Shown: piece after piece, positions 3,721-61,997 of the stretch
Numbering within the stretch: position 1 is the stretch's first letter
Layout of the letters: the number at the start of each line of letters is the position of its first letter
Assembly: GCA_964291215.2 (NCBI GenBank)
Contig: OZ219790.1
Coordinates: 512,001-576,000 of the forward strand
Direction: 5' to 3'
DNA from: Alphaproteobacteria bacterium
GTDB lineage: Bacteria > Pseudomonadota > Alphaproteobacteria > MPNO01 > UBA830
DNA: 64,000 nt
Position numbers and translations under genes: made by a program
Notes under the pieces: model-generated
What the model was told of the DNA's origin: nothing
The model's input: only the letters and a program-made list of their open reading frames with translations
The model's database searches: none

Positions 3721-3888
3721 CCACAGCGTCAGGCTGCCCGTCAGCGCCCGGTCGGCGGTCACCACGAGGCGAGTTTCATTGCCCTCGGTCACCGCCGCAG
3801 GGTCCCGCGCCAGCGTCAGCACCGGCAACAGCGTCGTGTCCATCACCGTCACCGCGCCCGAGGGTTCCGTGTCCAAAACCGCCGAGTG
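3720..3888 (-). pseudogene. Fragment of a Calx-beta/Ig-like repeat surface protein
   Basis: SAVLDTEPSGAVTV...PVLTLARDPAAVTEGNETRLVVTADRALTGSLTL resembles beta-sandwich adhesin repeats. No start or signal peptide. Confidence 0.45.
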
Positions 3889-41600: not shown

Positions 41601-41873
41601 AACGGAGGTAATCTTGAAGTGAAACCGTCCTGACCATCTGCGTTCCGAAGCCGCAACGTGCAGCAGGGTCCATGCCGCGCGACGGGGAAATAGTGGCTTG
41701 AAGCCGACAAAGGCGTTGCATAAGCTCGATGTTGAAGGAACTGAAGCTGTTCCCAGGCGGAATCGAGAGGGGCAGAGGGGGAAAATTTGTGCAACATCCG
41801 GCCCTCATCGCAGTGAGGGCGTAGCCCGAACGGAGATGAGGGCCGGATGTTGCACTTCAGACTGGAAGTGGGG
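38646..41873 (+). mobile_element. Degenerate IS30-family element (copy 2), interrupted by an IS4 element
   Basis: Inverted near-copy of 30629-31822 with both IRs. Confidence 0.9.
39099..41120 (+). mobile_element. Degenerate IS4/IS50-like element with an N-terminal DUF4338 region
   Basis: IRs CTGCCCATCGGACACA / TGTGGGTAATGGGCAG and TSD GCCGCGGG. DUF4338-like pieces (QLRYLIGS, ARFLIR, YGIRPVLAETFV) precede Tn5-like EFGAAPLGDARL, GLHTTFAV..DGVPLG and MGGYLNRSKDGPPG. Confidence 0.88.
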
Positions 41874-41995: not shown

Positions 41996-43364
41996 CCCTT
42001 AATGAACAGGCAGCCGCCTTCTATCTGGGTTCAAGGGTACTGTAACTTGATGTCTGGAAATTTGTCTGAGGTTTGCGCTTTGAGGCGTTTCACTGGGGGG
42101 CTAGCCCCCCAGTGAAACGCGGCGCCATCGTGCTATCCCATGGAGTTGAAAAACCTTCATGGAGGAAGCGAATGGAGCTGCGACACACTACGACGATTGA
42201 GGCCGTTTTGGAACATCTGATCGCAAACGGAGCAACGGATCTGGGGCGGGTCTTTGGCCAGCTCTTCGAGCTTGCGATGCAAATCGAGCGTGAGCAGTAC
42301 TTGAAAGCGGGCCACCGGACACCGGAACGACAGGGCTATGCCAACGGCTACAAGCGGATCGACACCCCCACTGTTGCCGTTCAGGTGCCAAAGACGGCCG
42401 GTCACGGGGACAACCCGTTCTATCCCCAGTCGCTTGAACGCGGCCAGCGATCTTCTCGCGCCGTAGCCGAGATGTACATCAAGGGTGTTTCCACGCGGCA
42501 AGATGTAATGCGCGAGTTCGGGAGCCTGTCCTCTTCTCAGGTCAGCCGGGCCACCAGGTTGCTCGATGAAGAACTCGCCGCGCAACCGGCCCCTTGGGCT
42601 GATGAAATACCTGATCCTGGATGCGCGCTACGAAAAAGCCCGCCATGACGGCGTTGTGCGCGATGTTGCAGTGCTCTCGGCCATCGGAATAGGGGCTGCA
42701 GGCACGTTCTGGGGCTCTCTGTGGCGCTCTCCGAGGCCGAGGTCCATTGGAGAGCCTTCCTGGAAAGCTTGCTAGCCCTGCATGGTACGACCTTCATCGT
42801 CTCGGATGACCATGCTGGGCTGAAAGCAGCACGACGCGCGGTGCTGGGCGCGGCGACATGGCAGCGCTGCCAGTTCCACTTGGCGCAAAACGCCGTGCAC
42901 CGAACAACGACATCAGGAAACGTATTGGAAAACAGCTCGGAGCCATGCGTCCTCACTCCAAACCGCCGAGGCTGAACTGGGCGCCCTCGTGGCCAGCTAT
43001 CGCGACAAGCATCCAAGCTTCCTGGCTGGAAAAGAATGCGGGGCTCGCTGTCTTCACCTTGCCCGATGCTCACCGCAAACGTATGCGAACCTCGAACGGC
43101 ATCGAGCGGCCGATCCAGCAAGAGCTCAAGCGGCGCACCTCCAAAGTCAGGGTCTTTCCGAACCTCGCCTCGTTGGAGCGCCTCTCAACCGCGGTCCTCA
43201 TCGACGAAAAATGGGAAACCGAAACCAAGATCAAATGGGAACAGCTCGATGACTGAGAGCTTCACGACAATTTCCAGACATCAGGTTGCGTAATCGCTTC
43301 AAGCTGTCGCCTATCGACGACCGCATCTATTTTACCCGACCGGATTCCGTTCTCGCCACCGTCG
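41995..43364 (+). pseudogene. C-terminal remnant of a GNAT acetyltransferase (TA-toxin-like), split by IS256
   Basis: Removing IS256 and one TSD gives ALNEQAAAFYLGFKLSPIDDRIYF..., resembling GNAT toxin C-termini. Confidence 0.5.
42036..43295 (+). mobile_element. Degenerate IS256-family element (copy 1)
   Basis: EMYIKGVSTR, YLILDARYEK, VSDDHAGL, WQRCQFH, RTSNGIER and ELKRRT..VRVFPN. IRs present. TSD GGTTCAAG/GCTTCAAG. Confidence 0.92.
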
Positions 43365-43538
43365 ACAAGACTTGATCAGCCGTTGTCGATACGGCGACGG
43401 ACTCTGGAATTGGTGCCCGGCTTCTGCCCTGCCCGTCGGACAATCAACCGACGTCAGATCCTGTGCGCACTCGGGACACGATTCCCAAACTGCGCTATAT
43501 TGACGCCGAGTCGTCGAATACCATGCCGGACGAATGAG

Positions 43539-43754
43539 ATGAAGTTCCACATCGAATACTGCCAACAGTGAAACTACAAGCCGCGGGCCCTCCGTGCGAG
43601 GGATTTGCTTGTGCAAGCCGGGGCCGAAGCCGAGATCGTACCCGGACGGGTTGGATCGTTCGAGATTACGATAGGCGACTCGACAGTGTTCTCGAAACTC
43701 GACACCGGCCGGTTTCCTGGCGACGACGAGGTCCGGGGTCTGGCCCGGACCTGA
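43539..43754 (+). CDS. SelW/SelT/SelH (Rdx family) selenoprotein, UGA = Sec at 43569
   Basis: MKFHIEYCQQ(U)NYKPRA...PGRVGSFEITI....VFSKLDTGRFP..DEV. CxxU motif, with the frame open after the TGA. Confidence 0.88.
43572..43612 (+). promoter_or_regulatory. Bacterial SECIS-like hairpin
   Basis: ACAAGC...CCCTC-CGTGC-GAGGG...GCTTGT. The G-containing apical loop begins 21 nt after the UGA. Confidence 0.7.
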
Positions 43755-43838
43755 ACCGCGCTGCCACTGCTGGACAGCAGCGTTCGCCGAACGCCGGTTA
43801 CTTCAGGAGCGAGGGTGTCCGAGCCCGGACGAACCAGT

Positions 43839-44681
43839 ATGAGTGGGACGGTCAAGATGCATGCACCGCAGTCATGGCTTTCGGTCGACGAGATTGCCGA
43901 ACGGGTTCCGGACGGCGCACTGGTCGCGTTCCCGAAGGACGATGCCGGTGTGGCAATGGCAGCGACGCGGGCGCTGATTCGCAAGGGCGTCCGGGGCCTG
44001 CGTCTCCTCACCGTGCCCGTCGGCGGTTTCCAGATCGAGATCCTCGTCGGTGCGGGCTGCGCCGGCGAGGTCGAGACCAGCGGCGTTTCATTGGGGGAAT
44101 TCGGCTTCGCCCCGCGCTTTTGTGATGCCGTCGAACACGGCCGCATCGTGATCCGAGACGCGACCTGCCCTGCAATCTACGCGGCGCTGCAGGCGTCGGA
44201 AAAGGGTATTCCGTTCATGCCGCTCCGCGGCATCATCGGCTCCGATCTGCTGGGCCATCGCCCCGACTGGAAGGTGATCGAGAATCCCTTCGCCCAAGGC
44301 AATGATCCGGTGGTGGCGCTGCCCGCGGTCACCCCCGATATCGCGCTCTTCCACTGCCGCTACGGCGATGCGCACGGCAATGTCTGGGCCGGAGCGGCCC
44401 GCGAGTGCGTCCTGTTAGCCCACGCTTCGAAGTGCACGCTTGCGACCGTCGAGGAAGTCTGGGACGGTAACCTGATGGATGATCCCGGGATGCGAGCCGG
44501 CGCCATCCCGCCGGTCTATGTTGACGCGGTAGCGCACGCGCCGCAGGGCGCCTGGCCTCTGCCCGGGCACTGCCCGAAAGACGGCCGCCACCTTCGCGCC
44601 TATCTGGCCGCAGCGCAGACAGCGAAGGGCTTCGATGCGTGGCTCGCAGAGAACGTGCTTCAGGTTGAGGCCGCAGCCTGA
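43839..44681 (+). CDS. CoA-transferase family I subunit A (glutaconate CoA-transferase-like)
   Basis: ALIRKGVRGL.L, APRF, GIPFMPLRGIIGSDL, ENPF, PDIALFH...D.HGNV and TVEE. Confidence 0.85.
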   Translation: MSGTVKMHAPQSWLSVDEIAERVPDGALVAFPKDDAGVAMAATRALIRKGVRGLRLLTVPVGGFQIEILVGAGCAGEVETSGVSLGEFGFAPRFCDAVEHGRIVIRDATCPAIYAALQASEKGIPFMPLRGIIGSDLLGHRPDWKVIENPFAQGNDPVVALPAVTPDIALFHCRYGDAHGNVWAGAARECVLLAHASKCTLATVEEVWDGNLMDDPGMRAGAIPPVYVDAVAHAPQGAWPLPGHCPKDGRHLRAYLAAAQTAKGFDAWLAENVLQVEAAA

Positions 44682-44689
44682 CCTTGTCC

Positions 44690-45421
44690 ATGGAGTATTC
44701 CCGCGAGGAACTGCTGATCTGCGCCCTGGCGCGCCTTCTCGACGGCTGCCGCAACATCGCCGTCGGCACAGCGTCTCCCATTCCCGGAAGCGCCGCACTG
44801 CTGGTCCAGGCACTCGGCGGCGGCAAGGCGCGCGCCAGCATTCTCGGGAGCGTACTGCACAACCCGTTCAATGACGGCGGTCCCGAACTGTTCGACCGCG
44901 CCGGTCAGGGCCGGGTTGACGCATTCTTTCTCGGCGGCGGCCAGATCGACGGCGAAGGCAACATCAATCTTGTCGGAACCGGCCCCTACCCGGCCTCAGA
45001 GACCCGCTTTCCCGGCAGCTTCGGCTCCGCCTACCTGTATTTCACGGTTCCGCGCGTCATCCTGTTCCGGGAAGAACATTCTCGCCGCTCCCTCGTCGAC
45101 CGCGTCGATTTCATCAGCGCTCCCGGCGCCAGCCCGCCGGAGGTCCACCGGCCAGGCGGCCCGTTCGCCCTCGTCACCAACCTGTGCGTCTTCGCCTACG
45201 AACGCGGCAACCGGAGGTTCCGCCTCGAGGGTCTTCTACCCGGTGCAACCCTCGAGGAAGTGCGCGACAACACCGGTTTCGATTTCGCTTGCCCCACCGA
45301 TCTCGCGCCGGTGGCGCCGCCCGAACCCGACCGACTCGAGCTGATCCGCGGGCGCATCGCGGATGAAATCGCGGAGACCTATCCCGAGTTCGCACGCAGG
45401 CGCCTCGGCTGGCAAGGCTGA
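44690..45421 (+). CDS. CoA-transferase family I subunit B
   Basis: FFLGGGQIDGEGNIN, FPGSFGS, VDFISAPG, VTNLCVF and EVRDNTGF. Confidence 0.85.
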   Translation: MEYSREELLICALARLLDGCRNIAVGTASPIPGSAALLVQALGGGKARASILGSVLHNPFNDGGPELFDRAGQGRVDAFFLGGGQIDGEGNINLVGTGPYPASETRFPGSFGSAYLYFTVPRVILFREEHSRRSLVDRVDFISAPGASPPEVHRPGGPFALVTNLCVFAYERGNRRFRLEGLLPGATLEEVRDNTGFDFACPTDLAPVAPPEPDRLELIRGRIADEIAETYPEFARRRLGWQG

Positions 45422-45519
45422 CCACCCCGATGGACGCCTGCTATACTCTGTCACGAGGCGGAGGGTCAGGGCGTTCCGCCGCAAAGGGCCCTCCTTCCCA
45501 TCCGAGGAGTTGAGTTCCG

Positions 45520-45963
45520 TTGGACAACGTATTCGAAGTCTACCGTTCCGTCGTCTTCCCCTGGCATTGCGATCACATCGGCCACATGAACGTGCGCTGG
45601 TACGCACACCATTTCGACGACGCTGGCTTTCATCTGTGGACCGTAGCCGGCCTGAGCCAGAAGGCGATGCATAAAAGCGGTTCGGGGCTGGTGGTTGCAC
45701 GAATCTCGATCGACTACGTTCGGGAGATGAAGGCTGGCGACCTCATGGTCATACGCGGCGGCTTCACCCATGTCGGTAACAGGTCCATACGCCACCACCT
45801 GCGCATGTATGACGCCGACAGCGACGAACTGCGCGCGACCCAGGATACGGTCGAGGTGTTCTTCGACCCGGAAACCAGGAAATCCGCGGTCATGCCCGAT
45901 CACTACCGCAACAGGCTAAAGCCCCTGGTTGTCGACTTCGCCGAAGCGGAAGACCGGGCATGA
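45520..45963 (+). CDS. Hotdog acyl-CoA thioesterase (4HBT-like)
   Basis: VFPWHCDHIGHMNVRWY..FDDA. TTG start. Confidence 0.88.
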   Translation: MDNVFEVYRSVVFPWHCDHIGHMNVRWYAHHFDDAGFHLWTVAGLSQKAMHKSGSGLVVARISIDYVREMKAGDLMVIRGGFTHVGNRSIRHHLRMYDADSDELRATQDTVEVFFDPETRKSAVMPDHYRNRLKPLVVDFAEAEDRA

Positions 45964-46787
45964 CGCCGATCGAAGGGAGGGTCGCAATCGTCACGGGGGC
46001 TGGACGCGGCCTCGGACTTGCCATGACGAGGGGCCTGGTCGCCGCAGGCACCAGGGTCGCGATGGCCGAACTTGACGAAGACGTTGTCCGCGCGGCGGCA
46101 CGCGAATTCGGGGACTCCGTGATCGCCGTGTCCGGCGACGTATCGAATCCCGACGATGCGCGGAGGATCGTCGAGGAAACCGTCGGGGCGTTCGGCAACC
46201 CTGACGCGCTCGTGAACAATGCCGGGCTCGGACCCCAACGCTTCCGCAGCACGGACCGGTCGGATGTCAGTATGGTCTGGGAGATCGAACTCGCCGACTG
46301 GCTGCTCTATCTCGACGCCAACGTCACCGGCCATTTCGTCATGACGAAGGCAGTGATGCCCGGCATGCTGGCGCGGAATCACGGCCGTATAGTCAATGTT
46401 ACGACCAGCTTCGAGACCATGATCGCCTACGCCAACGGCGCCTATGGGCCGTCCAAGGCGGCCGCCGAAGCTCTCGCGACGATGATCGCGGGCGGTGTCG
46501 CGGGAACTGGCGTGACCTGCAACGTGCTCATCCCGGGCGGCCCCGCCGACACTCGCATGATTTCGGCGGCCGGAAAATATGCCAACCGCGCGAATCTCAT
46601 TCAGCCCGAAGTCATGGTCCCGCCGCTGCTCTATCTCATGTCCGACGATTCTGCGGGCATCAATGACCGCCGGATACGGGCTGCCGTCTGGGACATGAAC
46701 AGGACAGTGGAGGAAAACCTCGACGCCGCGAGCGCGCCGATCGCCTGGCCGCAGCTCGGCGGACAGGCGATCCAGCCCGAAAGCTGA
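45960..46787 (+). CDS. SDR oxidoreductase (paralog 1)
   Basis: TGAGRGLG, VNNAG, YGPSK and NVLIPGGP. Confidence 0.92.
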   Translation: MTPIEGRVAIVTGAGRGLGLAMTRGLVAAGTRVAMAELDEDVVRAAAREFGDSVIAVSGDVSNPDDARRIVEETVGAFGNPDALVNNAGLGPQRFRSTDRSDVSMVWEIELADWLLYLDANVTGHFVMTKAVMPGMLARNHGRIVNVTTSFETMIAYANGAYGPSKAAAEALATMIAGGVAGTGVTCNVLIPGGPADTRMISAAGKYANRANLIQPEVMVPPLLYLMSDDSAGINDRRIRAAVWDMNRTVEENLDAASAPIAWPQLGGQAIQPES

Positions 46788-46847
46788 GCGCGGCGTCTCG
46801 AAGCGGATCCGCAGCCCGGATGCGGCCGACAAACCGGAGGAGATGCC

Positions 46848-47711
46848 ATGACTGATCGACCGCTCGAGGGGCGCATCGCGCTGATTACCGGAGCCGGGCG
46901 AGGGCTGGGCAAGGCAATGGCCGAGGGCCTTGCGGCCAAGGGCGCACGGACTGCCCTTCTCGATATCGAGCGGGACGTGCTCGCAGCCGCGCTTCGCGAG
47001 GTCGAGGCAGCCGGCGGCCAAGGCTGCGCGATGGCAGTGACCGCCGACGTCACCGATCCCGAGCGGGCGCGGGCCGCCATCGACGAGGTCGTCGATGGCT
47101 TCGGCGGACTGCACATCGTCATCAACGACGCAGCGATGGGACCTCAGTTCTTCACGAATGACTTTGTCGGGGACCCGCCGGTCTTCTGGGATGTCGATCC
47201 CGAACTCTGGCTCCGCGTGCTGACCGTGAACGCCTACGGGCCGCAGTTGGTGACCTCGGTCGCGGTGCCGCATCTTCTGAAAGCAGGTTGGGGACGCGTT
47301 ATCAACATCACCACCAGCCTCGACACGATGTATCTGCGGGGCTGCGGAGCTTACGGCCCCTCAAAGGCCGCGCTTGAGGCCAACACCCGCATCATGGCGC
47401 ATGATCTCGCGGATACCGGGGTGACGGCCAATGTCCTCATTCCCGGGGGCCCGGCGAACACGCGCATGATTCCGGAAGCGACCGGCCTTCCGCGCGACAA
47501 ACTTGTACAGCCCGAAGCAATGCGCGCCCCGGTGTGCTGGCTCTGTAGCGCCGATGCCGACCGCATCAACGGCATGCGCTTCGTTGCGGCGCTGTGGGAC
47601 GAAAGCCTGCCGCCGGACGAACGCGTCGCCAAGGCCGGCGCACCCGTGGCCTGGCCCCAGGTCAACTCGATATCGCAACGGCCGGATGGCTGGGAACACG
47701 AGGATTTATAG
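46848..47711 (+). CDS. SDR oxidoreductase (paralog 2)
   Basis: TGAGRGLG, YGPSK and NVLIPGGP. Confidence 0.92.
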   Translation: MTDRPLEGRIALITGAGRGLGKAMAEGLAAKGARTALLDIERDVLAAALREVEAAGGQGCAMAVTADVTDPERARAAIDEVVDGFGGLHIVINDAAMGPQFFTNDFVGDPPVFWDVDPELWLRVLTVNAYGPQLVTSVAVPHLLKAGWGRVINITTSLDTMYLRGCGAYGPSKAALEANTRIMAHDLADTGVTANVLIPGGPANTRMIPEATGLPRDKLVQPEAMRAPVCWLCSADADRINGMRFVAALWDESLPPDERVAKAGAPVAWPQVNSISQRPDGWEHEDL

Positions 47712-47743
47712 AACGCCCAACCGCACGAAACGGGAGAACCGCC

Positions 47744-48589
47744 ATGAGCAATCGAGCCCTTGAGGGCAAGACAGTACTGATGACCGGAGCCGGGCGCGGC
47801 ATGGGCCGACGCATGTCCGTAGCGCTCGCCGAAGCCGGAGCAAGGGTCGCCATGATCGATATCGACGAGGACGTGCTCAGCGAGGCCGCCGAGGAGGCGG
47901 AAGGCGCCGGCGGCCAAGGCTCGGTCAGACCGATGATCTGCGATGTTACCGACGCCGATCGCGCGAGGCAGACAGTGGACGAGATTGTCGCATCCTTCGG
48001 GTCGATCGATGTTCTCGTCAACGATGCGGTTGTCGGGCCGGAGCGCATACCGGGCTTCATGGTCGGCCACACGAATTTCTGGGATCTCAATGACGACCTG
48101 TGGAACACCATGCTGCGGGTCAATGTCTTCGGTCCCCAGCTCATGGCCAAGACCTGCGCCCCGGTCATGATGAAGGGCGGCTGGGGCCGCATCATCAACG
48201 TGACCACCAGCCTCAACACCATGTATCGCGTCGGTGGCGGCGCCTACGGGCCTTCCAAGGCGGCGCTGGAGGCCCATACCCACATCATGGCGCACGACCT
48301 CGACGGCACGGGAGTAACTGCCAACATCCTGATCCCCGGCGGGCCGGTCAACACGCGGATGATTCCGGCCGACGCCCCGTTCAGCCGCTCTGCCCTGATT
48401 CAACCCGAGGTCATGGAAATGCCTGTGGTCTGGCTGGCATCGGAAGATTCCGATGGGATCAATGGTATGCGTTTCATCGCGGCACTGTGGGACCCCGACC
48501 TCCCCCGCGACGACCGCATTGCCAGGGCCGGAGCGCCAGTAGCCTGGACCCAACTCGAATCGCGGGCGATCTATCCATCCGAGGATTGA
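47744..48589 (+). CDS. SDR oxidoreductase (paralog 3)
   Basis: TGAGRGMG, YGPSK and NILIPGGP. Confidence 0.92.
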   Translation: MSNRALEGKTVLMTGAGRGMGRRMSVALAEAGARVAMIDIDEDVLSEAAEEAEGAGGQGSVRPMICDVTDADRARQTVDEIVASFGSIDVLVNDAVVGPERIPGFMVGHTNFWDLNDDLWNTMLRVNVFGPQLMAKTCAPVMMKGGWGRIINVTTSLNTMYRVGGGAYGPSKAALEAHTHIMAHDLDGTGVTANILIPGGPVNTRMIPADAPFSRSALIQPEVMEMPVVWLASEDSDGINGMRFIAALWDPDLPRDDRIARAGAPVAWTQLESRAIYPSED

Positions 48590-48821
48590 TTTCCGATCGG
48601 ACGTGATCACAAAATTGCCGTATACGGCCCCAACCATGGCCCATGCACGGCTCCCGCTTGCGGCGTCGTCCCGACGGAAGAGGGAAAAAAGCTCTTGCCG
48701 TTCCTCATGCCGCCCATCCACCGGTGTCGGGCCGATAGCCGTTCCGTGGCCTTGCCTTCCGGCGCTTGACCGGCCGCCGATGCGGCAGCCGTCGGGCTGA
48801 AGACGGCGTGATGCGGAGCGG

Positions 48822-50198
48822 ATGATGGCCAAGGACCTGAGAACATTTCTGGAAGGCGCCGGTGCGAACGTTCTGCGCGTCTCGCGGCCGGTGCCGCGCA
48901 AGCATCTGAGCGCGCTGATCGTCGAGGCCCGGCAACCGGTGCTTTTCGAGCGGATCGAAGGCTTTGCCGGCTGGAGGCTGGCCGACCTTCTTTTCCGCGA
49001 CCGCGCGGCCCAGGCAATCGTGCTCGGAACCGAACCGGATGCCGTCCTGCCATTTCTCGCCGAACGCCTGTCACGTCCACCGGTAGCACCATGCCTGACC
49101 GCCCGACGCCCCGGTGTCTGGACCGACCATGACGGCGGGCATGCGGATTTCGGCCTGCTACCCGGGTTTCAGCACGGAGCACGCGACCCCGGTCCCAGCC
49201 TGATCGCCATGGTCGTCTGCCAGGGACCCGACGGTGGCCCGGCGAACTTCTCGTTTACGCGGATCTCGCCTTTCGACGCTCGACGCGCAACTTACCTGAT
49301 CGGTTCGTCGCCACACATGCGTTCCATTCTCTCCGCCTGGGAAGCGCGCGGCGAGGCAATGCCGATCGCCTTTGTCATAGGAACCCACCCGGCCTACGAG
49401 ATCATGGCGTCCTACAGCGTCCCCGACCATCTTGAACGGTTTGGCGAGCTCGACATGGTCGCCAATCTCGTCGGCGAGCAGGTCGAACTCGTCGCCTGCC
49501 GCACGATCCCGCTTGCGGTTCCGGCCCACGCCGAGGTCGTGATCGAGGGGCGTGTCACGCCCGGTGAACGCCGCGACGACGGACCGGGCCCGTCGCAGGC
49601 CCTGTACTACATTCCGGGCGTCACCAGGCAGCCGGTGGTCGAGATCTCGTCGATTGCCATCCGCGAGAATTCGATCCTGCGCCAGCACAACACCCTGATG
49701 TATTCGGATCATCAGCCGCTGCTGTCGCTGCCCCATGAGGCAATGTTGTATGAACGTCTGACGAAGCAGGGATTCCGCGTGCGTGAGGTTGCGTATGTCC
49801 CGTGGGGCGGAACACTGGCCTGCGTTGTGCAGATGACACCCGAATCGGAAGGCGAGGCCCACAACGCGCTGATGCTCATGCTCGGAGAACGCTGGCCCAG
49901 CGCCAAGCTCACAATTGCAATCGACGACGATGTCGACATCGAAAGCGCCGAAGACCTGATCTGGTCGGTCGCAACCCGTGTCGAGCCGACGCGCGACATT
50001 TTCGTCGTTCCATCTGCAAAGGGCCATGCCCTGGATCCCACCGCCCGCGAAGCGGCTGGCGGATCGCGCAATGTCGTTGCCGGCAAATGGGCAATCGACG
50101 CAACCGGACCGCCGGCCAGCGATCACCCGGCGCGCGCGCGCTTCGAACGCACCGTACCGCCCCATGGCGGCAAAGTGCGGCTTGCCGATTTCCTGTGA
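48822..50198 (+). CDS. UbiD-family (de)carboxylase-like protein
   Basis: DLRTFL, PVLFE, MPIAFVIG.HP, VPAHAEVVIEG, IDDDVDI...WSVATR.EP..D and KWAIDAT. Confidence 0.85.
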   Translation: MMAKDLRTFLEGAGANVLRVSRPVPRKHLSALIVEARQPVLFERIEGFAGWRLADLLFRDRAAQAIVLGTEPDAVLPFLAERLSRPPVAPCLTARRPGVWTDHDGGHADFGLLPGFQHGARDPGPSLIAMVVCQGPDGGPANFSFTRISPFDARRATYLIGSSPHMRSILSAWEARGEAMPIAFVIGTHPAYEIMASYSVPDHLERFGELDMVANLVGEQVELVACRTIPLAVPAHAEVVIEGRVTPGERRDDGPGPSQALYYIPGVTRQPVVEISSIAIRENSILRQHNTLMYSDHQPLLSLPHEAMLYERLTKQGFRVREVAYVPWGGTLACVVQMTPESEGEAHNALMLMLGERWPSAKLTIAIDDDVDIESAEDLIWSVATRVEPTRDIFVVPSAKGHALDPTAREAAGGSRNVVAGKWAIDATGPPASDHPARARFERTVPPHGGKVRLADFL

Positions 50199-50271
50199 CC
50201 GCACGAACATTTCGATCCGCACGAACGGGACTTTCCGGCCTTGTATACTGTCCTGCCGCCTGTTTCGAATA

Positions 50272-53006: not shown

Positions 53007-54280
53007 GCGTAATCGTCCGCTTCGCCGGGCTCGTAGAGCGTCTCGCGGCCCAGACGGTCGAGACAGAGCTCGGCCGTCCACGGAAGCATGAGCGATCCCA
53101 ATCGTGAATCGCGGTAGAGTCTCTCCAGCGGCAGGGACTTCAGCATCGACTGGCCGCCGCAGGTGCGGATTGCAAGCCGGCACATGTCATTGGCGGTTTC
53201 CATGACGGTGTACTGCACGGCATAGGCCCGGAGGCGGTTGGCTTTCGGCGGATCGACCCGAGCCTCGGACAGGGCCTGGTGGAAGATGGCCCAAGCCTGC
53301 TGCAGCTTGATCCACATCTCGGCCACGGTGATCTGCTTGGTCGGATACATCCGGCGCTTGACGGGAATGCCCTCGACCTCGCCGCGAAGATAGGAGACAG
53401 TGAAATCGTAAGCCGCCTGTGCAATGCCCATGTAGGTAGGGCAAAGCGTCAGGAACATGTGCGGCCACCTGCGCGCCGCCTGGTGGTAGGCACCGCGCGG
53501 CATGAGCATCTGCTCGTCCGGGATGAACACGTCCTCCATGACCAGGTTCCGCGACACTGTTGCGCGCATGCCAACGGGGTCCCACGGCCCGACGATGGAA
53601 ACACCCTCCACATCCGCCGGAACCGCCATGAAAAGCGTATCCCGCACAGACTTCTCGGGCTTGTCCTCGGTGCACAGAACGCCGTAATAGGTTGCTGCGC
53701 CCGACAGCGACGCGAATATCTTGCGGCCGTTGAGGAGCCAGCCGCCGTCCACCTTCGCTGCCAGAGTACCAAACGGCGCCTTTCCCGCCGCTGCCGCCGA
53801 TCCCTCGGAGAACGGTTGCGCGAATATCGCGCCATCGTCGACGATGCGCGAGAAATGGAGCGCCCGATTCTCCGCGTGCTGGCGCCGGTCGGCATCCGGC
53901 ATGTCGAGATCGTCCGCAATGTGGCCTGTCCATAACGGGGTGCAGGCATGCATGTTGTAGGTCAACGCCGTCGCTCCGCACCAGCGCCCCATCTCGGCGG
54001 CAAGAAGCCCATACGCCTCGTACTCCATGCCAAGCCCACCGTGATGCTCCGGCACCGTCATTGCGAGGATGCCGGCCTCGCGCATGTCGTCATAGTTTTC
54101 GAACGGAAATGACGCCTCCTCGTCGTAGCGGGCCGCACGCGAGGCGAACTTGTCCTTGCCGAGCGCACGGATTACACCCTCGATCGCGTCCCGGTTGCCG
54201 GCGAGGCGGCTCCATTCCGCCCTGGACGCCGTCCGCCTTCCATCGTCGGATCCGGCCTGCTTGCTGCTTTCCATGTCCAC
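53003..54280 (-). CDS. Acyl-CoA dehydrogenase family flavoprotein
   Basis: VPEHHGGLG, LNGRKIFAS, WDPVGMRATVS and LERLYRD. Confidence 0.9.
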   Translation of the reverse strand: MDMESSKQAGSDDGRRTASRAEWSRLAGNRDAIEGVIRALGKDKFASRAARYDEEASFPFENYDDMREAGILAMTVPEHHGGLGMEYEAYGLLAAEMGRWCGATALTYNMHACTPLWTGHIADDLDMPDADRRQHAENRALHFSRIVDDGAIFAQPFSEGSAAAAGKAPFGTLAAKVDGGWLLNGRKIFASLSGAATYYGVLCTEDKPEKSVRDTLFMAVPADVEGVSIVGPWDPVGMRATVSRNLVMEDVFIPDEQMLMPRGAYHQAARRWPHMFLTLCPTYMGIAQAAYDFTVSYLRGEVEGIPVKRRMYPTKQITVAEMWIKLQQAWAIFHQALSEARVDPPKANRLRAYAVQYTVMETANDMCRLAIRTCGGQSMLKSLPLERLYRDSRLGSLMLPWTAELCLDRLGRETLYEPGEADDYA

Positions 54281-54289
54281 CTCCTGCTG

Positions 54290-55066
54290 TCAGGACCGCA
54301 CGGCTGCGAGAAAATCCTCCAGAGCGGCGTTAAAGGCCGGCGGGTCCTCAAGATTCGCGAGATGGCCGAGACCGGGCAGGCAGACATACCTGCACCCAGC
54401 GATGCGTGACGCCATTCTCTCCATCATCGCCGGCGGCGCGTTGCGATCGTGTTCCCCCGCGATCGCCAGAGCGGGGACCGCAATACGGGACAGATTGTCC
54501 CTGCGGTCGAAAGTCACGATACAGGCAATCGCCGCGCGATAGGTCGCCTCGGGCACCCCCGCCATGCACCGCCACGCGATATTCCGTCCATCCGGATCGG
54601 ACGATGCGCCCATCATCTCGTTCACCAACTCGTCCGCGAGGTCAGCCATCGTCGCGCCCTTGTCCAGTGGCTCGAGCCGATCCGTGACGAACTGTTTCTG
54701 AAAGGCGCCGTCAGCACGGCCAAAGGCAGAGCTGGTGGCCGACAGGACGAGCGAGGAAAGGCGGTCTTGATGGGTTGCGGCAAATTCCTGGGCAACCATC
54801 CCGCCCATCGAATGGCCGACGAGATGGACCCTTTCCCATCCCCGTGCGTCAAGAAGCATGGCCAGGGCATCAGACAGTGCGGCAAAGGACATGTCGCCCT
54901 CGAGCCTGCTTGCGCCGTAACCAGGCATGTCCCATGCCGCGGCGCAGCCGTCCCGCGAGAAGTGTTCGAGCTGCGGGCACCAGCTTGCAGAATCACCGCC
55001 GACACCATGAAGAAACAGCACGACATCCCCCTCCCCGCGCACGCTGCAATCGGGAACCACGGTCAT
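54290..55066 (-). CDS. Alpha/beta hydrolase
   Basis: LHGVGG, nucleophile elbow GHSMGG and GHLANLE.P. Confidence 0.9.
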   Translation of the reverse strand: MTVVPDCSVRGEGDVVLFLHGVGGDSASWCPQLEHFSRDGCAAAWDMPGYGASRLEGDMSFAALSDALAMLLDARGWERVHLVGHSMGGMVAQEFAATHQDRLSSLVLSATSSAFGRADGAFQKQFVTDRLEPLDKGATMADLADELVNEMMGASSDPDGRNIAWRCMAGVPEATYRAAIACIVTFDRRDNLSRIAVPALAIAGEHDRNAPPAMMERMASRIAGCRYVCLPGLGHLANLEDPPAFNAALEDFLAAVRS

Positions 55067-56109
55067 GCAAGCTCTCCGCAAAGTTCGCCGGCCTCGACCA
55101 CGGCCTCGTTATCGAGACGGATCGTGCAGTTGCGGAGTGGCAGGTCGAAATGTCCCTGCGTGTAGCGCCCGGCGGTTTCGTTGGCTCCGGTCGAATAGAG
55201 GAAATTGCCGGCAAACGCGCGCAGCTCCGTGCCGTTGACGTCGCGCTTGTCGTACATGGCCAGCGCTTCCCAGCGGGCGGCCGGATTCATTCCCCAGCCG
55301 ACATGGGACACGGCATACGCCTCCCTGTCGCCCCATGCGGCGATGTAGTTCCTGAACAGATCCGCATCGAGTCCTTCGCCACCGATCGCAGCAACGTAGT
55401 CGTTCTCGACTGTCAGCGTTACCGGGCTCTCCAGGTAGCGCTTGAAGGTGAGGTTGACATCCCCTGCATCAAGAACCAGCGTGCCGTTGACCGTGCCGGG
55501 CTTCGGAAAACAGAGCACCAGCCCGCCCGGCCAGTGCGCCACCTGCCCCGGTTTTGCGCAGTAGCCCCAGACCCCGGCGCCTCGGGTATCGCGGATATCG
55601 ATTTCGAGATCCGTGCCGGCTTCCGACCGCACCGTCATGCGCGCCGCCGTGGAGAGGCGGCGGATGCCGGTCTTCACCTTCGGCTCCAGCGCCGGGTCCG
55701 GGACCAGCCTTTCCAACACATCTGGATGTTCGTTCGAGATCATCATCAGCCGTGCGCCGCCATCTAGAATCTCACGCAGTTCCGGGGCATGGAGCATGCC
55801 CTCGACCGTGCAGTCGATCACGATCGTCGATTCGCGAAGGGCTGCCACCACGGGTGCCAGCCCGTCGACGGCCGCCGACGCGCCGGTCGACCGCACCGGA
55901 ACCGGCGCGTCCTGTGCCGGCGACACGAGGCGCACGTGGAACGGGCGTACCCCGAGCCTCTGGAGGGCCAGTTCCGCAAGATGCACGTTGAGGCGGCGCG
56001 ACTGGGTTTCTGAAAGGATGGCGGCGCTGTCGCCGGAAACCAGCCCGCATGACCGGAAGACGGCACAGAAAGCCTCGATCCACTTGCCTTCGATACGATC
56101 CGTGAACAT
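55063..56109 (-). CDS. NicX-like 2,5-dihydroxypyridine dioxygenase / peptidase M29-fold protein
   Basis: GTDL, HWPGG, SHVGWGMNP.ARW, E.RAFAGNFLYSTG.N and HFDLPLRNC. Confidence 0.78.
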   Translation of the reverse strand: MFTDRIEGKWIEAFCAVFRSCGLVSGDSAAILSETQSRRLNVHLAELALQRLGVRPFHVRLVSPAQDAPVPVRSTGASAAVDGLAPVVAALRESTIVIDCTVEGMLHAPELREILDGGARLMMISNEHPDVLERLVPDPALEPKVKTGIRRLSTAARMTVRSEAGTDLEIDIRDTRGAGVWGYCAKPGQVAHWPGGLVLCFPKPGTVNGTLVLDAGDVNLTFKRYLESPVTLTVENDYVAAIGGEGLDADLFRNYIAAWGDREAYAVSHVGWGMNPAARWEALAMYDKRDVNGTELRAFAGNFLYSTGANETAGRYTQGHFDLPLRNCTIRLDNEAVVEAGELCGELA

Positions 56110-56378
56110 GATTTCCCCGCGTTCATTAACCCGGGCCGGCAAGGCCGATCCCACGGCACAGGATACTATGATTTCCGGCTCCGCGCATGCCGCGACGCGG
56201 CAGAACCTGCCAGCCCGCCCGGTGCAGTTCGCATGAAGGAGTCCGCAAAAGCTGTTACGCTCCGCGTACACCGGCAAACTCTGCAGTGCCGTGGCGGGTA
56301 TTCTGTCGAGGCCGCCGAGTGCGTCGCCCGATCTCCGCGGCGCATGCGCGGAAAATGCCGGATCGAGTTGGAGACCGC

Positions 56379-57164
56379 ATGGCGATGAACAGAGACGAAG
56401 ACGCACCTGACAGAATTCGACTTTCGGACGTGTCCAAATGGTTCGGTCCCGAGCAGGTTCTCGACGGCGTTGACCTCGCCGTGCCCGAAGGCGAGAACTT
56501 GGTCGTCATCGGCCCGTCGGCCTCGGGAAAGACGGTGCTCCTCAAGACGATCATCGGCCTGTTCAGGCCGGAGGCGGGAAGCGTCGCCATCTCGGGCCGG
56601 GACAGCGTTGGCCTCCACGGACCGGCACGGGAAGCGCTCGGCCGGATCAGCATGCTGTTCCAACGCGCTGCACTGTTCGACAGCATGCGCGTATGGGAGA
56701 ATGTGACATTTGTCCTGCGACGGACGGAGCGGTTGTCGCGAAGCGATGCGATCGACGCCGCGGTCTCGCGCCTGGCCGATGTCGGACTGGACCCGGAGGT
56801 CGCACTCCTGTACCCGGCAGAACTCTCGGGCGGCATGCAGAAGCGCGTCGGAATCGCGAGGGCCTTGGCCAACACGCCCGATATCCTCCTCCTTGACGAG
56901 CCCACGGCCGGCCTCGATCCGGTCACCGGAACCGTTATTACCAACCTTATTCGGGACAATGTCGGCAGGCTCGGTGCTACGGCAATCACGGTCACCAGCA
57001 GCATGGCAAACGCCCGCGCGCTCGCTGACCGTATAACAATGCTGCACGAGGGCCGGGTGGTCTGGACCGGCGATGCGTCCGGGCTCGCCAGCAGCCGCAA
57101 TCCCTACATCAGACAATTCGTCGATCAGAATCCCGAAGGCCCCATCAGGACGGAGGCCGCCTGA
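56379..57164 (+). CDS. MlaF-like ABC ATPase
   Basis: GPSASGKT, LFQ..ALFDSM, ELSGGMQKRV and DEPTAGLDP. No mlaE or mlaD adjacent. Confidence 0.85.
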   Translation: MAMNRDEDAPDRIRLSDVSKWFGPEQVLDGVDLAVPEGENLVVIGPSASGKTVLLKTIIGLFRPEAGSVAISGRDSVGLHGPAREALGRISMLFQRAALFDSMRVWENVTFVLRRTERLSRSDAIDAAVSRLADVGLDPEVALLYPAELSGGMQKRVGIARALANTPDILLLDEPTAGLDPVTGTVITNLIRDNVGRLGATAITVTSSMANARALADRITMLHEGRVVWTGDASGLASSRNPYIRQFVDQNPEGPIRTEAA

Positions 57165-57283
57165 GAGGGGTGCTCAGCCGGTCGGATGCCGTTTGTTATT
57201 GCCAGGGCGGCGCGTTAGGCTTGCCCGGCATTGAGCACCGCTGCAGTGGCTGGACGCCTCCGCAACGGACAGAAGGGGCCGTA

Positions 57284-57802
57284 ATGGAAATGCAAATGAT
57301 CTCCAGGGCGCATATGTGGTTGCTGAACGCGCTCAAGTTTCTTGCCGGCCTCGTCGTGCTGATGATCTTCGTGATGATCGTCCTGGATGTCGGCGCCACC
57401 ATGCTCAACATCTCGCCCTGGGAGGGGACGATTGGCTTCGTCGAGTACGGCATGCTGTGGTTCACCATGCTGGCCGCGCCGTGGCTCGCCCGCATCAAGG
57501 GTCATGTCTTCATCGATGCCCTCACCCAGCTTTTCTCCCCGGCGGTGCAGAACTTTGCTGCCCGGTTCGCCTATCTGGTGGCCATCATCGGCTCCTCCGC
57601 CTTCTGCTACTACTCCACCCTTCTCGTCGTTGAGGCATTCGAGGCCGAACAGATCGACGAACGCGGCATCGAGATGCTCAACTGGTGGCTCTATGCGCCA
57701 ATGCCGATCGCCTTCTTCCTCGTTGCTGTCGAGTTCCTGCGCTTCCTCCTTGGTTTTGACAATATGTACGGGAGTCGAACCGATGTGCGCGAGGGAATGT
57801 AG
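57284..57802 (+). CDS. dctQ: TRAP small permease
   Basis: About 4 TM segments and GHVFID. Precedes dctM. Confidence 0.88.
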   Translation: MEMQMISRAHMWLLNALKFLAGLVVLMIFVMIVLDVGATMLNISPWEGTIGFVEYGMLWFTMLAAPWLARIKGHVFIDALTQLFSPAVQNFAARFAYLVAIIGSSAFCYYSTLLVVEAFEAEQIDERGIEMLNWWLYAPMPIAFFLVAVEFLRFLLGFDNMYGSRTDVREGM

Positions 57803-57804
57803 CC

Positions 57805-59112
57805 ATGGAGTGGTATTGGGCCTTCGCCCTCCTTCTCGGCATGGTCATCAGCTTCATGGCGATCGGCGTGCCGGTCGCGTTCTCCTTCATCATGACCAAT
57901 TTTCTCGCCGTCCTGATATTCGCCGGCGCGAACGGCCTGATTCAGGTCGTGGACAATTCGACCCAGCTGATCTCGCGTTTCGTGCTCGGCCCGGTGCCGA
58001 TGTTCATCCTCATGGGATCGTTGTTCTTTCACACCGGCCTCGCGATCAAGGTCTTTGACGGGCTCGACGCGATCTTCGGACGCCTTCCCGGACGCCTCTG
58101 CTACCTCACAGTTGCGGGCGGCTCGATATTCTCGACTCTGACCGGGTCGTCGATGGCAAATACCGCCATGCTGGGTTCGCTCCTGGTCCCGGAAATGGAG
58201 AAGCGCGGCTACAGCAAGAAAATGTCGATGGGACCGATCCTCGGCACCGGCGGCCTCGCGATGATTATTCCGCCCTCGGCGCTTGGCGTCTTGCTCGCCG
58301 CAATCGCCGAAATCGATGTCGGGCGGCTGCTGGTCGCCGGCTTCCTGCCCGGATTCGTGCTCGCAGGCCTCTATGCCGCCATGATCACGCTCCAGCTCAT
58401 CCGCAACCCCGGCTCCGCCCCGGCCTACGATGTCGATCCGATGAGCATGGGCACGAGACTCCGTCTCGTCACGACCAACATACTGCCGATGGGGCTGGTC
58501 ATCTTCATGGTCGTGGGCTTCATCGTGTTCGGCATTGCAACGCCTACCGAGGCCGCCGCCTGCGGCGTGCTGGGAGTGATGATTCTCGCCGTCGCCTTCC
58601 GTGCTCTAGATGTGAAATCCGTCTCGGTTTCCCTGGAGGCGACCGTCCGCGTTGCCGCGATGGTGTTTTTCATCATCATGAACTCCACCGTGTTCAGCCA
58701 GATGCTCTCCTATTCGGGCGCCAGCCGCGGCCTGATCGAATGGGTGACGAGCTACGAACTTCATCGGCTTGCAGTCCTGTTCCTGATGTTCTGCGTACTG
58801 ATCCTGCTCGGCATGTTCATGGACGCAACCTCGATGATGCTGATCACAGTACCGATTTTCTTTCCGCTGGCTGGCGCCCTCGGCTTCGACCTGATCTGGT
58901 ACGGGCTGTTCGTCCTGATCACGATCGAGATGGCGGGAACGACCCCGCCCTTTGGGCTGCTCTTGTATGTCATGCTAGGGGTGGCGCCCAAGGGAACCAG
59001 TCTGATCGAGGTCGCCAAGGCTGCGTTCCCGTTCCTTGTCTGCGACACGATCCTGATCATCATCCTGGTCGTCTGGCCCGACCTCGCACTCTGGCTGCCG
59101 AGCCTCATGTAG
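57805..59112 (+). CDS. dctM: TRAP large permease
   Basis: VPMFILMG, LAMIIPPS, ATPTEAA and TPPFG. Confidence 0.95.
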   Translation: MEWYWAFALLLGMVISFMAIGVPVAFSFIMTNFLAVLIFAGANGLIQVVDNSTQLISRFVLGPVPMFILMGSLFFHTGLAIKVFDGLDAIFGRLPGRLCYLTVAGGSIFSTLTGSSMANTAMLGSLLVPEMEKRGYSKKMSMGPILGTGGLAMIIPPSALGVLLAAIAEIDVGRLLVAGFLPGFVLAGLYAAMITLQLIRNPGSAPAYDVDPMSMGTRLRLVTTNILPMGLVIFMVVGFIVFGIATPTEAAACGVLGVMILAVAFRALDVKSVSVSLEATVRVAAMVFFIIMNSTVFSQMLSYSGASRGLIEWVTSYELHRLAVLFLMFCVLILLGMFMDATSMMLITVPIFFPLAGALGFDLIWYGLFVLITIEMAGTTPPFGLLLYVMLGVAPKGTSLIEVAKAAFPFLVCDTILIIILVVWPDLALWLPSLM

Positions 59113-59128
59113 GCCGCGTATCGTCCTG

Positions 59129-59156
59129 AAAAAAGGCGCCGCCCGAAGGCGGCGCC
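59129..59156 (-). terminator. Rho-independent terminator of dctP
   Basis: Minus strand GGCGCCGCC-TTCG-GGCGGCGCC-TTTTTT. Confidence 0.88.
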
Positions 59157-59178
59157 CCAATTCCGATCCGGCCGGATA

Positions 59179-60195
59179 TCAGCTGCCAGCCTTGACCATC
59201 TTCGATTTCAGAAGCTTGAAATCGATCGAGTATTTGCGCTTCTCGGCATCTGCCCAGTTGGCGTTGACGATCGTTCTCGTGAAGGCCTTGCCGTACTCGC
59301 CGGGCAGCGTGTAGTCTTGGACGCCTTCCTTGAAGATCTTCTCGTTGTCCGCCATCGCAAGCTTCTTTATTATTCCGCCAGACTCGTTCTCGTAGTGCAG
59401 TCCGGCCGCCATGACCTGCGCCTGCGCCTTCTTCGGCAACTTGTCGAACTTGTCCTTGTTCATCGTGACAAACGTCGTCGAACGGAAGAAGCCCGGACCG
59501 ACGCGGTACTTTATGAATTTCTGCCAGCCGCGGAAGGCGACGCCGCCCTCGGGCCATGCAAGGCCGTCAACCACGCCCCGCTCGAGCGCCGTATAGACCT
59601 CGGCCGGCGCGATTGTCTTGGTCGTCGCCCCCATCGCCCTGAAAAACGGGGTATACAGAGCTGTCGTGCGCATCTTCAAGCCCTTGAGGTCAAGGCCGGT
59701 AACCTTGCTCGGCTTCGGCTTGTCCTTGAGCCAGATGAAGAACTGATTGTAGCCGTAATAGTTGCCCCAGCCGAGAATCACGGCATTGAGCTTCTCCGCC
59801 CACGCCTTGGACATGAGATCGTAACCGCCGTTTTTGCGCCATTCCTGCGGGGACACGTTGGATATGCCGGTGAGCCGCGCTTCCGGAACCACATTGGCAT
59901 AGTAGGTCGTGGGCGACATGACGATATCGATCAGGCCCCGTTTCATTGCCGCGCCTTGCTTGAAGGCAGGAGTTACCTCGGGACCACCGATATATTTCGC
60001 CTTCACCAGACTCTGATCCTTCTTCATCGCTTCCAGGAATGTCTTGAAGAAGGTCTGGCTTTGATCGTGTTTTTCCCCGAGGGCCGTCGAAACCTTCAGT
60101 TCCTCCGCCGCCTGAACTGGCAGCGCCACCACCGTGGCGGCTACGGCTGCAGTGCACACCGCAGCCAGTTTCCGAAGTGTCAGCTTCATGATCAA
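59179..60195 (-). CDS. dctP: TRAP substrate-binding protein
   Basis: Signal peptide, DLKGLKMR and EVYTALERGVVDG. Confidence 0.92.
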   Translation of the reverse strand: MIMKLTLRKLAAVCTAAVAATVVALPVQAAEELKVSTALGEKHDQSQTFFKTFLEAMKKDQSLVKAKYIGGPEVTPAFKQGAAMKRGLIDIVMSPTTYYANVVPEARLTGISNVSPQEWRKNGGYDLMSKAWAEKLNAVILGWGNYYGYNQFFIWLKDKPKPSKVTGLDLKGLKMRTTALYTPFFRAMGATTKTIAPAEVYTALERGVVDGLAWPEGGVAFRGWQKFIKYRVGPGFFRSTTFVTMNKDKFDKLPKKAQAQVMAAGLHYENESGGIIKKLAMADNEKIFKEGVQDYTLPGEYGKAFTRTIVNANWADAEKRKYSIDFKLLKSKMVKAGS

Positions 60196-60504
60196 TTCTC
60201 CTGATCGAATTCAGTTGATTGTCGCTTGCAAGCCGGCATGGGAAGCTCTGGAGGCCCCCCAAAGTTTCGGACGATCCAAAGGCACCATGTGAATCACGCC
60301 ACCGAATTCGTCCGGAACCGCGTTGCACTGGGCACGTTTCCGTCGTCCCATCGCCAGTATCCGGCTCCTCGCAGATCGAATCCTAGCAGTTCTAATGCTC
60401 CGCGCAACCATAGGCCCCATGGGCCCGCGACGATCCCACGCTAATTCAGAGACGCGAAATCCGAATGCGTTGGGGCTCGGCTCATCACAGATCGCCTCCT
60501 TGAT

Positions 60505-60521
60505 CGCAATTTTCGTGCCAA
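60505..60521 (-). promoter_or_regulatory. Sigma54 (-24/-12) promoter facing dctP
   Basis: Minus strand TTGGCACGAAAATTGCG matches TGGCAC-N5-TTGC. Confidence 0.7.
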
Positions 60522-60728
60522 GAAGGCCCCATCGAGCCTTAGCGGCACGATTGCAGCGCGACGCAAACTGAGAAAATCTCGCCAGTCGTCGCCGGATTAG
60601 TAGCGTGGGATCGCCGTGCCATGGGCCTGCAGGACCTTCCCACGCGGTGGTTGATGTTTGAAAGACCGCTGAACAGGGCACAAATTTCCGCATTCTTGGC
60701 ATGTTTTCCGGCTGCGGCAACCCGTGGA

Positions 60729-61997
60729 GATTACGCAACCTGATGTCTGGAAATTGTCGTGAAGCTCTCAGTCATCGAGCTGTTCCCATTTGATCTTGGT
60801 TTCGGTTTCCCATTTTTCGTCGATAAGGACCGCGGTTGAGAGGCGCTCCAACGAGGCGAGGTTCGGAAAGACCCTGACTTTGGAGGTGCGCCGCTTGAGT
60901 TCTTGCTGGATCGGTCGCTCGATGCCGTTCGAGGTTCGCATGCGCTTGCGGTGAGCATCGGGCAAGGTGAAGACAGCGAGCCCCGCATTCTTTTCCAGCC
61001 AGGAAGCCTGGATGCTTGTCGCTGGCCACGAGGGCGCCTAGTTCAGCCTCGGCGGTTTGGAGTGAGGAGGCGTGGCTCCGAGCTGTTTTCCAATACGTTT
61101 CCTGATGTCGTTGTTCGGTGCGTGCTGCACGGCGTTTTGCGCCAAGTGGAATTGGCAGCGCTGCCATGTCGCCGCGCCCAGCACCGCGCGTCGTGCCGCT
61201 TTCAACCCAGCATGGTCATCCGAGACGATGAAGGTCGTACCATGCAGGGCTAGCAAGCTTTCCAGGAAGGCTCTCCAATGGACCTCGGCCTCGGAGAGCG
61301 CCACAGAGAGCCCCAGAACGTGCCTGCAGCCCCTATTCCGATGGCCGAGAGCACTGCAACATCGCGCACAACGCCGTCATGGCGGGCTTTTTCGTAGCGC
61401 GCATTGAGGATCAGGTATTTCATCAGCCCAAGGGGCCGGTTGCGCCAGGCGGCGAGTTCTTCATCGAGCAATCTGGTGGCCCGGCTGACCTGAGAAGAGG
61501 ACAGGCTCCCGAACTCGCGCATTACATCTTCAGCCTGCCGTGTGGAAACACCCTTGATGTACATCTTGGCTACGGCCACGGCGCGAGAAGATCGCTGGCC
61601 GCGTTCAAGCGACTGGGGGGGTCGTCCCCGTGACCGTTTGGCACCTGAACGGCAACAGTGGGGGTGTCGATCCGCTTGTAGCCGTTGGCATAGCCCTGTC
61701 GCTCCGGCGTCCGTTCGTAGTGGCCCGCTTTCAAGTACTGCTCGCGCTCGATTTGCATCGCAAGCTCGAAGAGCTGGCCAAAGACCCGCCCCAGATCCTT
61801 TGCTCCGTTTGCGATCAGATGTTCCAAAACGGCCTCAATCGTCGTAGTGTGTCGCAGGTCCATTCGCTTCCTCCATGAAGGTTTACAGCTCCATGGGATA
61901 GCACGATGGCGCCGCGTTTCACTGGGGGGCTAGCCCCCAGTGAAACGCCTCAAAGCGCAAACCTCAGACAAATTTCCAGACATCAAGTTACAGTACC
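60729..61997 (-). mobile_element. Degenerate IS256-family element (copy 2)
   Basis: Inverted near-copy of 42036-43295. TSD CCCGTGGA/CCCGTGGG. Confidence 0.92.

Follow-up and report, generated by a model that had tools for sequence, protein, structure and literature searches.

The old mobile elements in a 64,000-nucleotide stretch of the genome of a marine alphaproteobacterium (the window, G000:C1:512001-576000) have lost pieces of 5–7 nt at many sites, and the deletion signature of this genome, G000, is defined by its length. The deletions likely come from a host process that cuts pieces of fixed length, mainly from repeated DNA. The observation itself is solid. Directly seen are the size spectrum and its polarity, the host dependence, the anchor motif, repeated hits at homologous sites and the increase in density with copy number. 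G000 is 6.15 Mb long in two contigs (64% GC, 99% complete), and repeated DNA makes up 34% in this setting. An initial annotation of the window, made from its letters alone, had described the deletions as collapses between direct repeats of 2–5 nt in insertion sequences (ISs) and an intron; the fixed length, their defining feature, was absent from it.

Size and density of the deletions

We built 59 repeat families for G000, families of fewer than five copies being omitted, and the de-duplicated deletion alleles within them (n = 2007) have a sharp size peak at 5–7 nt and an echo at 12 nt. There are 234, 82, 54 and 42 alleles of 1, 2, 3 and 4 nt; 266, 513, 310 and 85 of 5, 6, 7 and 8 nt; and 50, 30, 37, 80 and 42 of 9, 10, 11, 12 and 13 nt, with no peak at 3 or 9 nt (54 and 50 of the 2007). 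The load is heavy, amounting to 12,322 deletions of 5–7 nt against 21,058 substitutions from consensus in 978 copies (1.1 Mb), a tally that covers families of at least 12 copies and copies no more than 6% diverged, with the duplicate families 14, 16, 18, 34 and 52 left out. Old copies carry about 11 deletions per kb, the IS copies lying 1.9% from consensus, and in ten large families that were checked not one copy (0) is free of a deletion of at least 4 nt. At sites still untouched, 31 new deletions of 5–8 nt were counted per 3552 private substitutions, a figure that excludes sites already hit and so understates the rate. In a young IS66 family 10 of the 14 copies are without deletion, and this family is a cohort in which the onset of deletion could be watched; at G000:C1:2536992-2538814 it has an intact 463-codon frame, and its copies are mostly identical.

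The two IS256-family copies of the window (Table 1) are cases in point. Copy 1 differs from the family consensus by seven deletions (5, 5, 6, 6, 6, 7 and 12 nt) and 16 substitutions, and from copy 2 by eight gaps of 5–7 nt, two 1-nt gaps and 25 substitutions. Its insertion site is empty in X2, one of three public runs (X1, X2 and X3) examined as contigs. Both copies stand where the initial annotation had placed them, all four junctions that it quoted exist, and other repeats of the window show the same gaps, among them the IS66-type copy. Its view that some of the deletions are private to one copy does not survive, as the four examples occur in 56, 68, 67 and 31 of the 81 near-full IS256 copies of the genome, and the GCCGT case, which had been taken as intact against deleted, is actually a 12-nt against a 6-nt allele. 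These 81 copies have about 25 deletion sites, mostly shared, and sisters that are 2–4 single nucleotide polymorphisms (SNPs) apart differ at 3–8 of the deletion sites.

Inverted repeats and target duplications had both been said mostly to survive. The inverted repeats do, but an exact target duplication of 7–8 nt is found in only 6 of the 48 full IS256 copies, or in 13 of 48 if up to one mismatch is allowed (both window copies have 8 nt with one mismatch). More than half of the 48 have unmatched flanks, which points to frequent exchange between copies. In the eight families with clear ends these ends are spared, the first deletion sites lying 100–280 nt inside them, and local divergence is higher in copies retaining a site than in those that have lost it. 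Close to the left end of IS256, at window 42095-42111, there is a G-run/C-run hairpin the length of which varies among copies.

A group II intron present in two copies is also affected, one copy having 29 gaps of 5–17 nt against 35 substitutions, and the other runs hold both fuller and heavily gapped versions of it. At the intron locus G000:C1:94851-96771, the X2 versions keep segments that are missing in G000, and X1 and X3 hold a form of the intron that lacks the open reading frame (ORF). The depths of the X2 contigs for this intron are 3,600–25,000 compared with about 58 for single-copy DNA, the 5' part being far deeper than the ORF; this possibly reflects a bloom in a co-occurring organism.

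Deletion density rises with copy number, being 0.35, 1.06, 6.98 and 9.34 deletions per kb at 0, 1–2, 3–9 and 10 or more extra copies when measured against outside references. Unique non-coding DNA was compared through the sister genome G001, of which 859 kb out of about 5 Mb was taken and 617 kb of unique DNA aligned to G000. It has 0.5 deletions of 5–7 nt per kb against 11 per kb in the repeats, which is about 20-fold less dense on a longer branch (synonymous divergence, dS, of 0.22 between G000 and G001), although selection confounds this comparison of multicopy with single-copy DNA.

Host dependence, anchors and recurrence

G237 is an unrelated host from outside the order (65% GC) with more than 139 IS4/IS5-type matches and decaying copies. 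When 110 places of G000 were aligned to G237 elements, G000 was found to miss 298, 409 and 376 segments of 5, 6 and 7 nt, and G237 to miss 0, 2 and 4, a total of 1083 against 6. The IS pairs of G237 itself (591 kb aligned, 30,414 mismatches) contain five distinct gaps of 6 nt but lack any of 5 or 7 nt. As the same IS families are without the deletions in G237, the cause lies with the host. The two genomes share mobile elements and adjoining DNA at 80–98% identity, a similarity which suggests recent exchange. No 5–7 nt peak was seen in the IS pairs of G003, G019, G023 and G252, in samples of 2–266 kb that are small for the first three, and those of G004 show no more than a few gaps of 7–12 nt. 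The trait is present in G002, yet G001 and G004 are nearer to G000 in MutL identity than G002 is, and the trait is thus patchy.

G002 is a second species of the same genus, with about 71% identical DNA, in one contig. Its transposase loci have 457 distinct gaps, including 168 of 5 nt, 198 of 6 nt, 23 of 7 nt and 27 of 1 nt, and the microhomology at G002 deletions is at chance level (45/25/10/2 against a null of 42/23/10/4). Deletions start at a consensus ATC (A in 68, T in 76 and C in 63 percent), often with G at the sixth base, and 210 of 363 deletions have AT at one end or the other, where 28 would be expected. The G000 anchor is loose, consisting of C/G, then a purine (87%), a pyrimidine (81%) and C (47%).

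Two IS66 subfamilies of G002, A and B, are 84% identical, and half of the subfamily B sites (14 of 28) coincide with A sites where 3.5 would be expected; at 7 of these 14 there are 5–11 differences within the 27 surrounding bases. Among four copies 20 of 48 ATC sites are hit, one anchor has both a 5- and a 6-nt allele, and a subfamily of about five copies holds at least 38 alleles. The coincidence of sites despite differing flanks and the two allele sizes at a single anchor argue for recurrence and not only copying. The eight newest IS66 copies in G002 are identical or nearly so.

Several other contexts were examined in G000. The deletions are not centred on polymorphic sites, as cutting at mismatches would have them, and tests for hairpin flanks and for a UV-type context were negative, C-to-T substitutions having a mild context bias only. 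With strands assigned by local GC skew in a rearranged genome, 63% and 62% are deleted on the two strands, and this lack of strand bias speaks against primer removal without fill-in on the lagging strand.

Proposed mechanism and alternative explanations

The reading we favour is that a host process nicks the DNA and excises pieces of fixed length, repeatedly at preferred sites and with the help of pairing between copies, its outcome resembling that of repeat-induced point mutation (RIP); we give this reading an even chance of being right. A host-encoded activity would introduce a single-strand nick at a loosely preferred site, anchored by ATC in G002 and by a purine-pyrimidine start in G000; 5–7 nt would then be removed and the gap sealed without fill-in, and losses of 11–14 nt would result when two deletions abut. 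Nicking, removal and sealing without fill-in is the simplest chemistry that would give deletions of fixed length from an anchored start without requiring microhomology. The activity would be most frequent where repeat copies pair and recombine, with pairing as its trigger or amplifier. Loops of 5 nt and more may persist since MutSL handles loops above about 4 nt poorly (PMC2504288). Gene conversion would additionally shuffle existing alleles, and the net effect would be to leave established IS families with no intact copy. In a bolder form, a dedicated and horizontally patchy host system would recognize paired repeats and clip 5–7 nt at a short motif until every invading IS or intron copy is dead, as a bacterial counterpart of RIP; we put this forward only tentatively.

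A number of results weigh against this proposal. In 450 kb of single-copy genes, 24 six-nt in-frame segments are missing in G000 and 0 in G001 (three-nt gaps number 7 and 4), and 126 kb of unique non-coding DNA has 64 gaps of 5–7 nt in G000 and 20 in G001, so repeats are not the only DNA affected. The copy-number classes differ in function too, the single-copy class being mostly working genes, and selection could be masking what happens in unique DNA. An IS remnant found at a single place in G000 has 6 deletions in 529 nt and, at 11 per kb, is as dense as multicopy DNA. ATC is mildly rarer in the unique non-coding DNA of G002 (1.26 against 1.39–1.59, samples of 4–43 kb per genome), the direction expected of a genome-wide process. 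Copies with more private SNPs carry no heavier deletion load (rho −0.08), and the single allele size at 91% of 346 sites in G000 is explained equally well by copying from a donor. The G000 motif is weak, with 21 of 92 positions hit in the best-scoring class and no prediction of allele frequency, and it is changed in 0 of 33 copies that keep a site against 3.9 expected. Microhomology of at least 2 nt is enriched 2.4-fold at recurrent 4–8 nt sites in G000 (311 of 647 against 127 expected), and the positive genomes are two only, G000 and G002.

The main rival, a possible but rather doubtful one, is a genome-wide mutator that makes measured deletions without any homology trigger, selection then purging the deletions everywhere but in dead mobile DNA. 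It would account for the excess that single-copy genes and intergenic DNA show in this lineage, for the density of the single-place IS remnant and of the two-copy group II intron, and for the mild ATC depletion, and single-copy events have a weak motif enrichment of their own (0.68 against 0.15, s.e. 0.25). On the other hand, the 126 kb of intergenic DNA have 9.6% substitutions and 306 one-base gaps, yet few deletions of 5–7 nt, a low rate in view of the divergence from the sister genome when the IS copies are so close to their consensus. The CRISPR array of the window serves as an internal control, and 0 of its 96 units are shortened by 5–7 nt; undated split or truncated single-copy genes of G000 have 6 deletions in 10.6 kb. 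The initial annotation had offered a slippage or end-joining bias visible only in unselected DNA, and it is the unselected-DNA half of that option which stays as the main rival. Its second option, RIP-like silencing, finds support in the outcome and in the copy-number gradient, but the process is not strictly limited to repeats, given the single-copy genes, the intergenic DNA and the IS remnant.

An explanation that dispenses with any new cutting activity is that rare ordinary deletions, invisible to MutS from 5 nt upward, are spread by gene conversion biased toward the deletion through loop removal. MutSL is intact in G000, and its limit of about 4 nt coincides with the size at which the peak begins; removal directed at loops, which exists in yeast extracts, would favour the deleted allele (PMC2504288). 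The predominance of one size per site fits this as well, and deletions are uncoupled from SNPs 10–15 nt away (r2 of 0.14, compared with 0.41 for pairs of SNPs) and skewed to high frequency, 20% of them being singletons against 54% of substitutions. However, the limit is general to bacteria with MutSL, among which G237, G252, G003, G019 and G023 are without the pattern even though G237 is rich in decaying ISs, and it sets neither an upper bound at 7 nt nor a motif. Nor would conversion explain a lineage-specific ruler, the ATC anchor, the many alleles in the five-copy G002 subfamily or the coincident sites with different flanks. As the sole cause it is unlikely, although the single sizes and the weak SNP linkage indicate that conversion probably acts as a secondary step that shuffles alleles.

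Replication slippage or microhomology-mediated end-joining at direct repeats of 2–5 nt, the mechanism first proposed, draws on the microhomology enrichment given above and on pseudogenes elsewhere, in which microhomology-flanked deletions are common (PMC6054270). But 336 of the 647 recurrent sites, or 52%, have only 0 nt (161) or 1 nt (175) of microhomology, and four of the commonest IS256 alleles, present in 58, 36, 64 and 41 copies, have none. Allele frequency in G000 bears no relation to microhomology (rho −0.02), interrupted microhomology has no excess beyond single positions, and there is no 3- or 9-nt peak. As there is zero microhomology excess in G002, slippage is refuted there as the main route, and the ligase and Ku required for end-joining were not found (see below), leaving this a very improbable explanation. 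That the deletions are formed on unprotected intermediates in the very course of transposition or retrohoming would suit the flat relation of load to private SNPs, the spared element ends and the single-place remnants, but we consider it scarcely credible, since most young IS66 copies in G000 are undeleted, the newest ones in G002 are (nearly) identical, and one ruler is common to elements of differing transposition chemistry. An assembly or polishing artefact in multicopy DNA, also raised at the outset, is next to impossible. Contigs cannot phase alleles along a copy, and some mosaic combinations could be mis-polished; nevertheless, IS256 gaps of 5–6 nt occur in X1, X2 and X3 contigs whose depth runs from the hundreds into the thousands, 96 nt over 523 reference bases are missing from the low-copy intron in an X3 contig, and the same size class appears in the independent genome G002, is polarized against G237, is biased in-frame in single-copy genes and is anchored to a motif.

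The nick-and-excise process that we favour can be set beside known systems. In Neurospora and other fungi, RIP mutates repeated mobile DNA, whatever its family, at a short preferred motif until none is intact, with some leakage, a cytosine methyltransferase-like enzyme making C-to-T changes in the sexual cycle. G000 is similar in that repeats of any family are mutated far more than single-copy DNA, again with some leakage, and dissimilar in that it is bacterial, has deletions of fixed length in place of C-to-T changes and has no sexual cycle. Top1-type short deletions in eukaryotes and the staggered cuts of EndoMS/NucS are nuclease-measured at about 5 nt, but NucS was not found in G000, RNase HII is present and the deletions are not centred on polymorphisms. 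Small deletions, some at microhomology, are likewise made by alternative end-joining and by non-homologous end-joining (NHEJ) through Ku-LigD (alternative end-joining is described in PMC6054270); G000 differs from Ku-LigD NHEJ in the fixed length, in the half of its sites that lack microhomology and in having no Ku or ATP-dependent ligase that could be found. The same source describes for bacterial pseudogenes an excess of deletions over insertions in unselected DNA, in part flanked by microhomology, as in G000, but with power-law sizes and an excess of multiples of three, unlike the bell-shaped 5–7 nt peak, the echo at 12 and the sequence anchor seen here. In its outcome the G000 process resembles RIP, and the features tested do not make it a case of RIP, NHEJ, slippage decay or NucS repair. 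We found no description in the open-licence literature of a signature with such a ruler and anchor. If pairing drives the process, bacteria have a means of silencing transposons permanently, which would be relevant to the way in which IS blooms come to an end in host-associated genomes; a process acting genome-wide would still be a new repair or mutator chemistry, one that shortens proteins by two residues each time.

Candidate enzymes and features of the window

The repair inventory of G000 includes intact mutS and mutL, RecJ, a DnaQ-family protein, RNase HII and ExoVII. No match to PF02735 (Ku) or PF01068 (ATP-dependent ligase) was found in this 99% complete genome, and Argonaute (Piwi) was not found either. 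No causal enzyme emerged from the search, in which recA, recBCD/addAB, uvrABC, ruvC, polA and topoisomerase IB were not included; a Pfam scan of 175 of the 515 atypical genes and a PADLOC scan of 34 returned defence systems with no obvious candidate. With two positive and several negative genomes, one of which shares the same elements, the gene should be findable by comparison.

An sspABCD cluster of one subtype, including the SspB nickase, is common to G000 (at G000:C1:871000-883000) and G002, and is followed by a DndB-like gene. SspABCD carries out single-strand phosphorothioation at the known motif CCA (PMC8092258), and the available parts of PMC8092258 and PMC10853773 describe no deletion activity for it. 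We rejected it as the cause because G237, with an SspB that is 79% identical, is negative and the motif is not ATC; G001, with an intact SspABCD-FGH, was also called negative, although its own repeats are not assessable. Among the genes scanned at the G000 and G002 loci there was no match to sspE or sspFGH, and sspC of G002 is split at a long poly-C run, which may be a phase switch or a sequencing error. Neither Cas4 nor Vsr follows the distribution of the trait (Cas4 was not found in G002, nor Vsr in G000), reverse transcriptases are present in G001 too, and AEP-TOTE is only a remnant in G000, where the start of the primase gene stands without the rest of the gene at G000:C2:1964090. Rpn/YhgA nucleases are expanded in both positive genomes but also number 8 in G237 and so do not track the trait; they have little sequence specificity (PMC5350276). 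G002 has 16 Rpn matches and eight Vsr-family matches, more than the relatives searched.

Table 1. Repeats and control regions in the window
Feature	Position	Strand	Remarks
IS256-family copy 1	42036..43295	+	Transposase broken
IS256-family copy 2	60729..61997	-	Against family consensus, seven deletions of 5–7 nt and 21 substitutions
Family 1 copy (IS66-type, 167 genomic copies)	34328..35580	-	Against consensus, 31 gaps, mostly 5–7 and 11–14 nt, and 13 substitutions
Family 1, partial second copy	32482..32920	-	7 gaps of 6–18 nt
Family 5 copy (55 genomic copies; IS family not confirmed)	30718..31822	+	12 gaps, ten of them 5–7 nt; 17 substitutions
Family 5 second copy	38646..41784	-	Split by an inserted segment into 38646-39099 and 41121-41784; ten gaps of 5–7 nt
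Family 3 half-element (57 genomic copies)	31825..32485	+	Other half-type at 2669-3265; gaps of 5–7 nt
Group II intron domain (RF02005)	2233..2399	-	Within repeat block 1-3861
Families 25 and 20, nested copies	8416..10512		Serial gaps of 5–7 nt
Metabolic block, mostly single-copy, between the IS256 copies	43400..60200		Control region: CoA transferase, SDRs, UbiD, MFS, acyl-CoA enzymes, TRAP
CRISPR array (part of 97 repeats)	62174..63966		Internal control

Of the initial labels, IS256, IS66 and group II intron hold up; IS30, IS630 and IS4 were not confirmed, the fragments tried having no Pfam match. The genes next to the elements had been described as clean. In the part that was aligned, no gap of at least 4 nt shifts their reading frame, but against G001 the metabolic block has one in-frame 6-nt gap, at 44560, and a few intergenic gaps, and a second in-frame 6-nt gap lies at 16607.

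An IteA/IteS-like anti-phage pair lies at window 4020-7724. Its peptidase gene is split by a frameshift which, to judge from a 65% alignment, does not belong to the 5–7 nt class. The Rpn/YhgA-like gene at window 37169-38230, which has a tail of 12-nt tandem repeats, is one of 12 matches in the genome, and several of these G000 genes have long open frames with few deletions and are therefore probably under selection.

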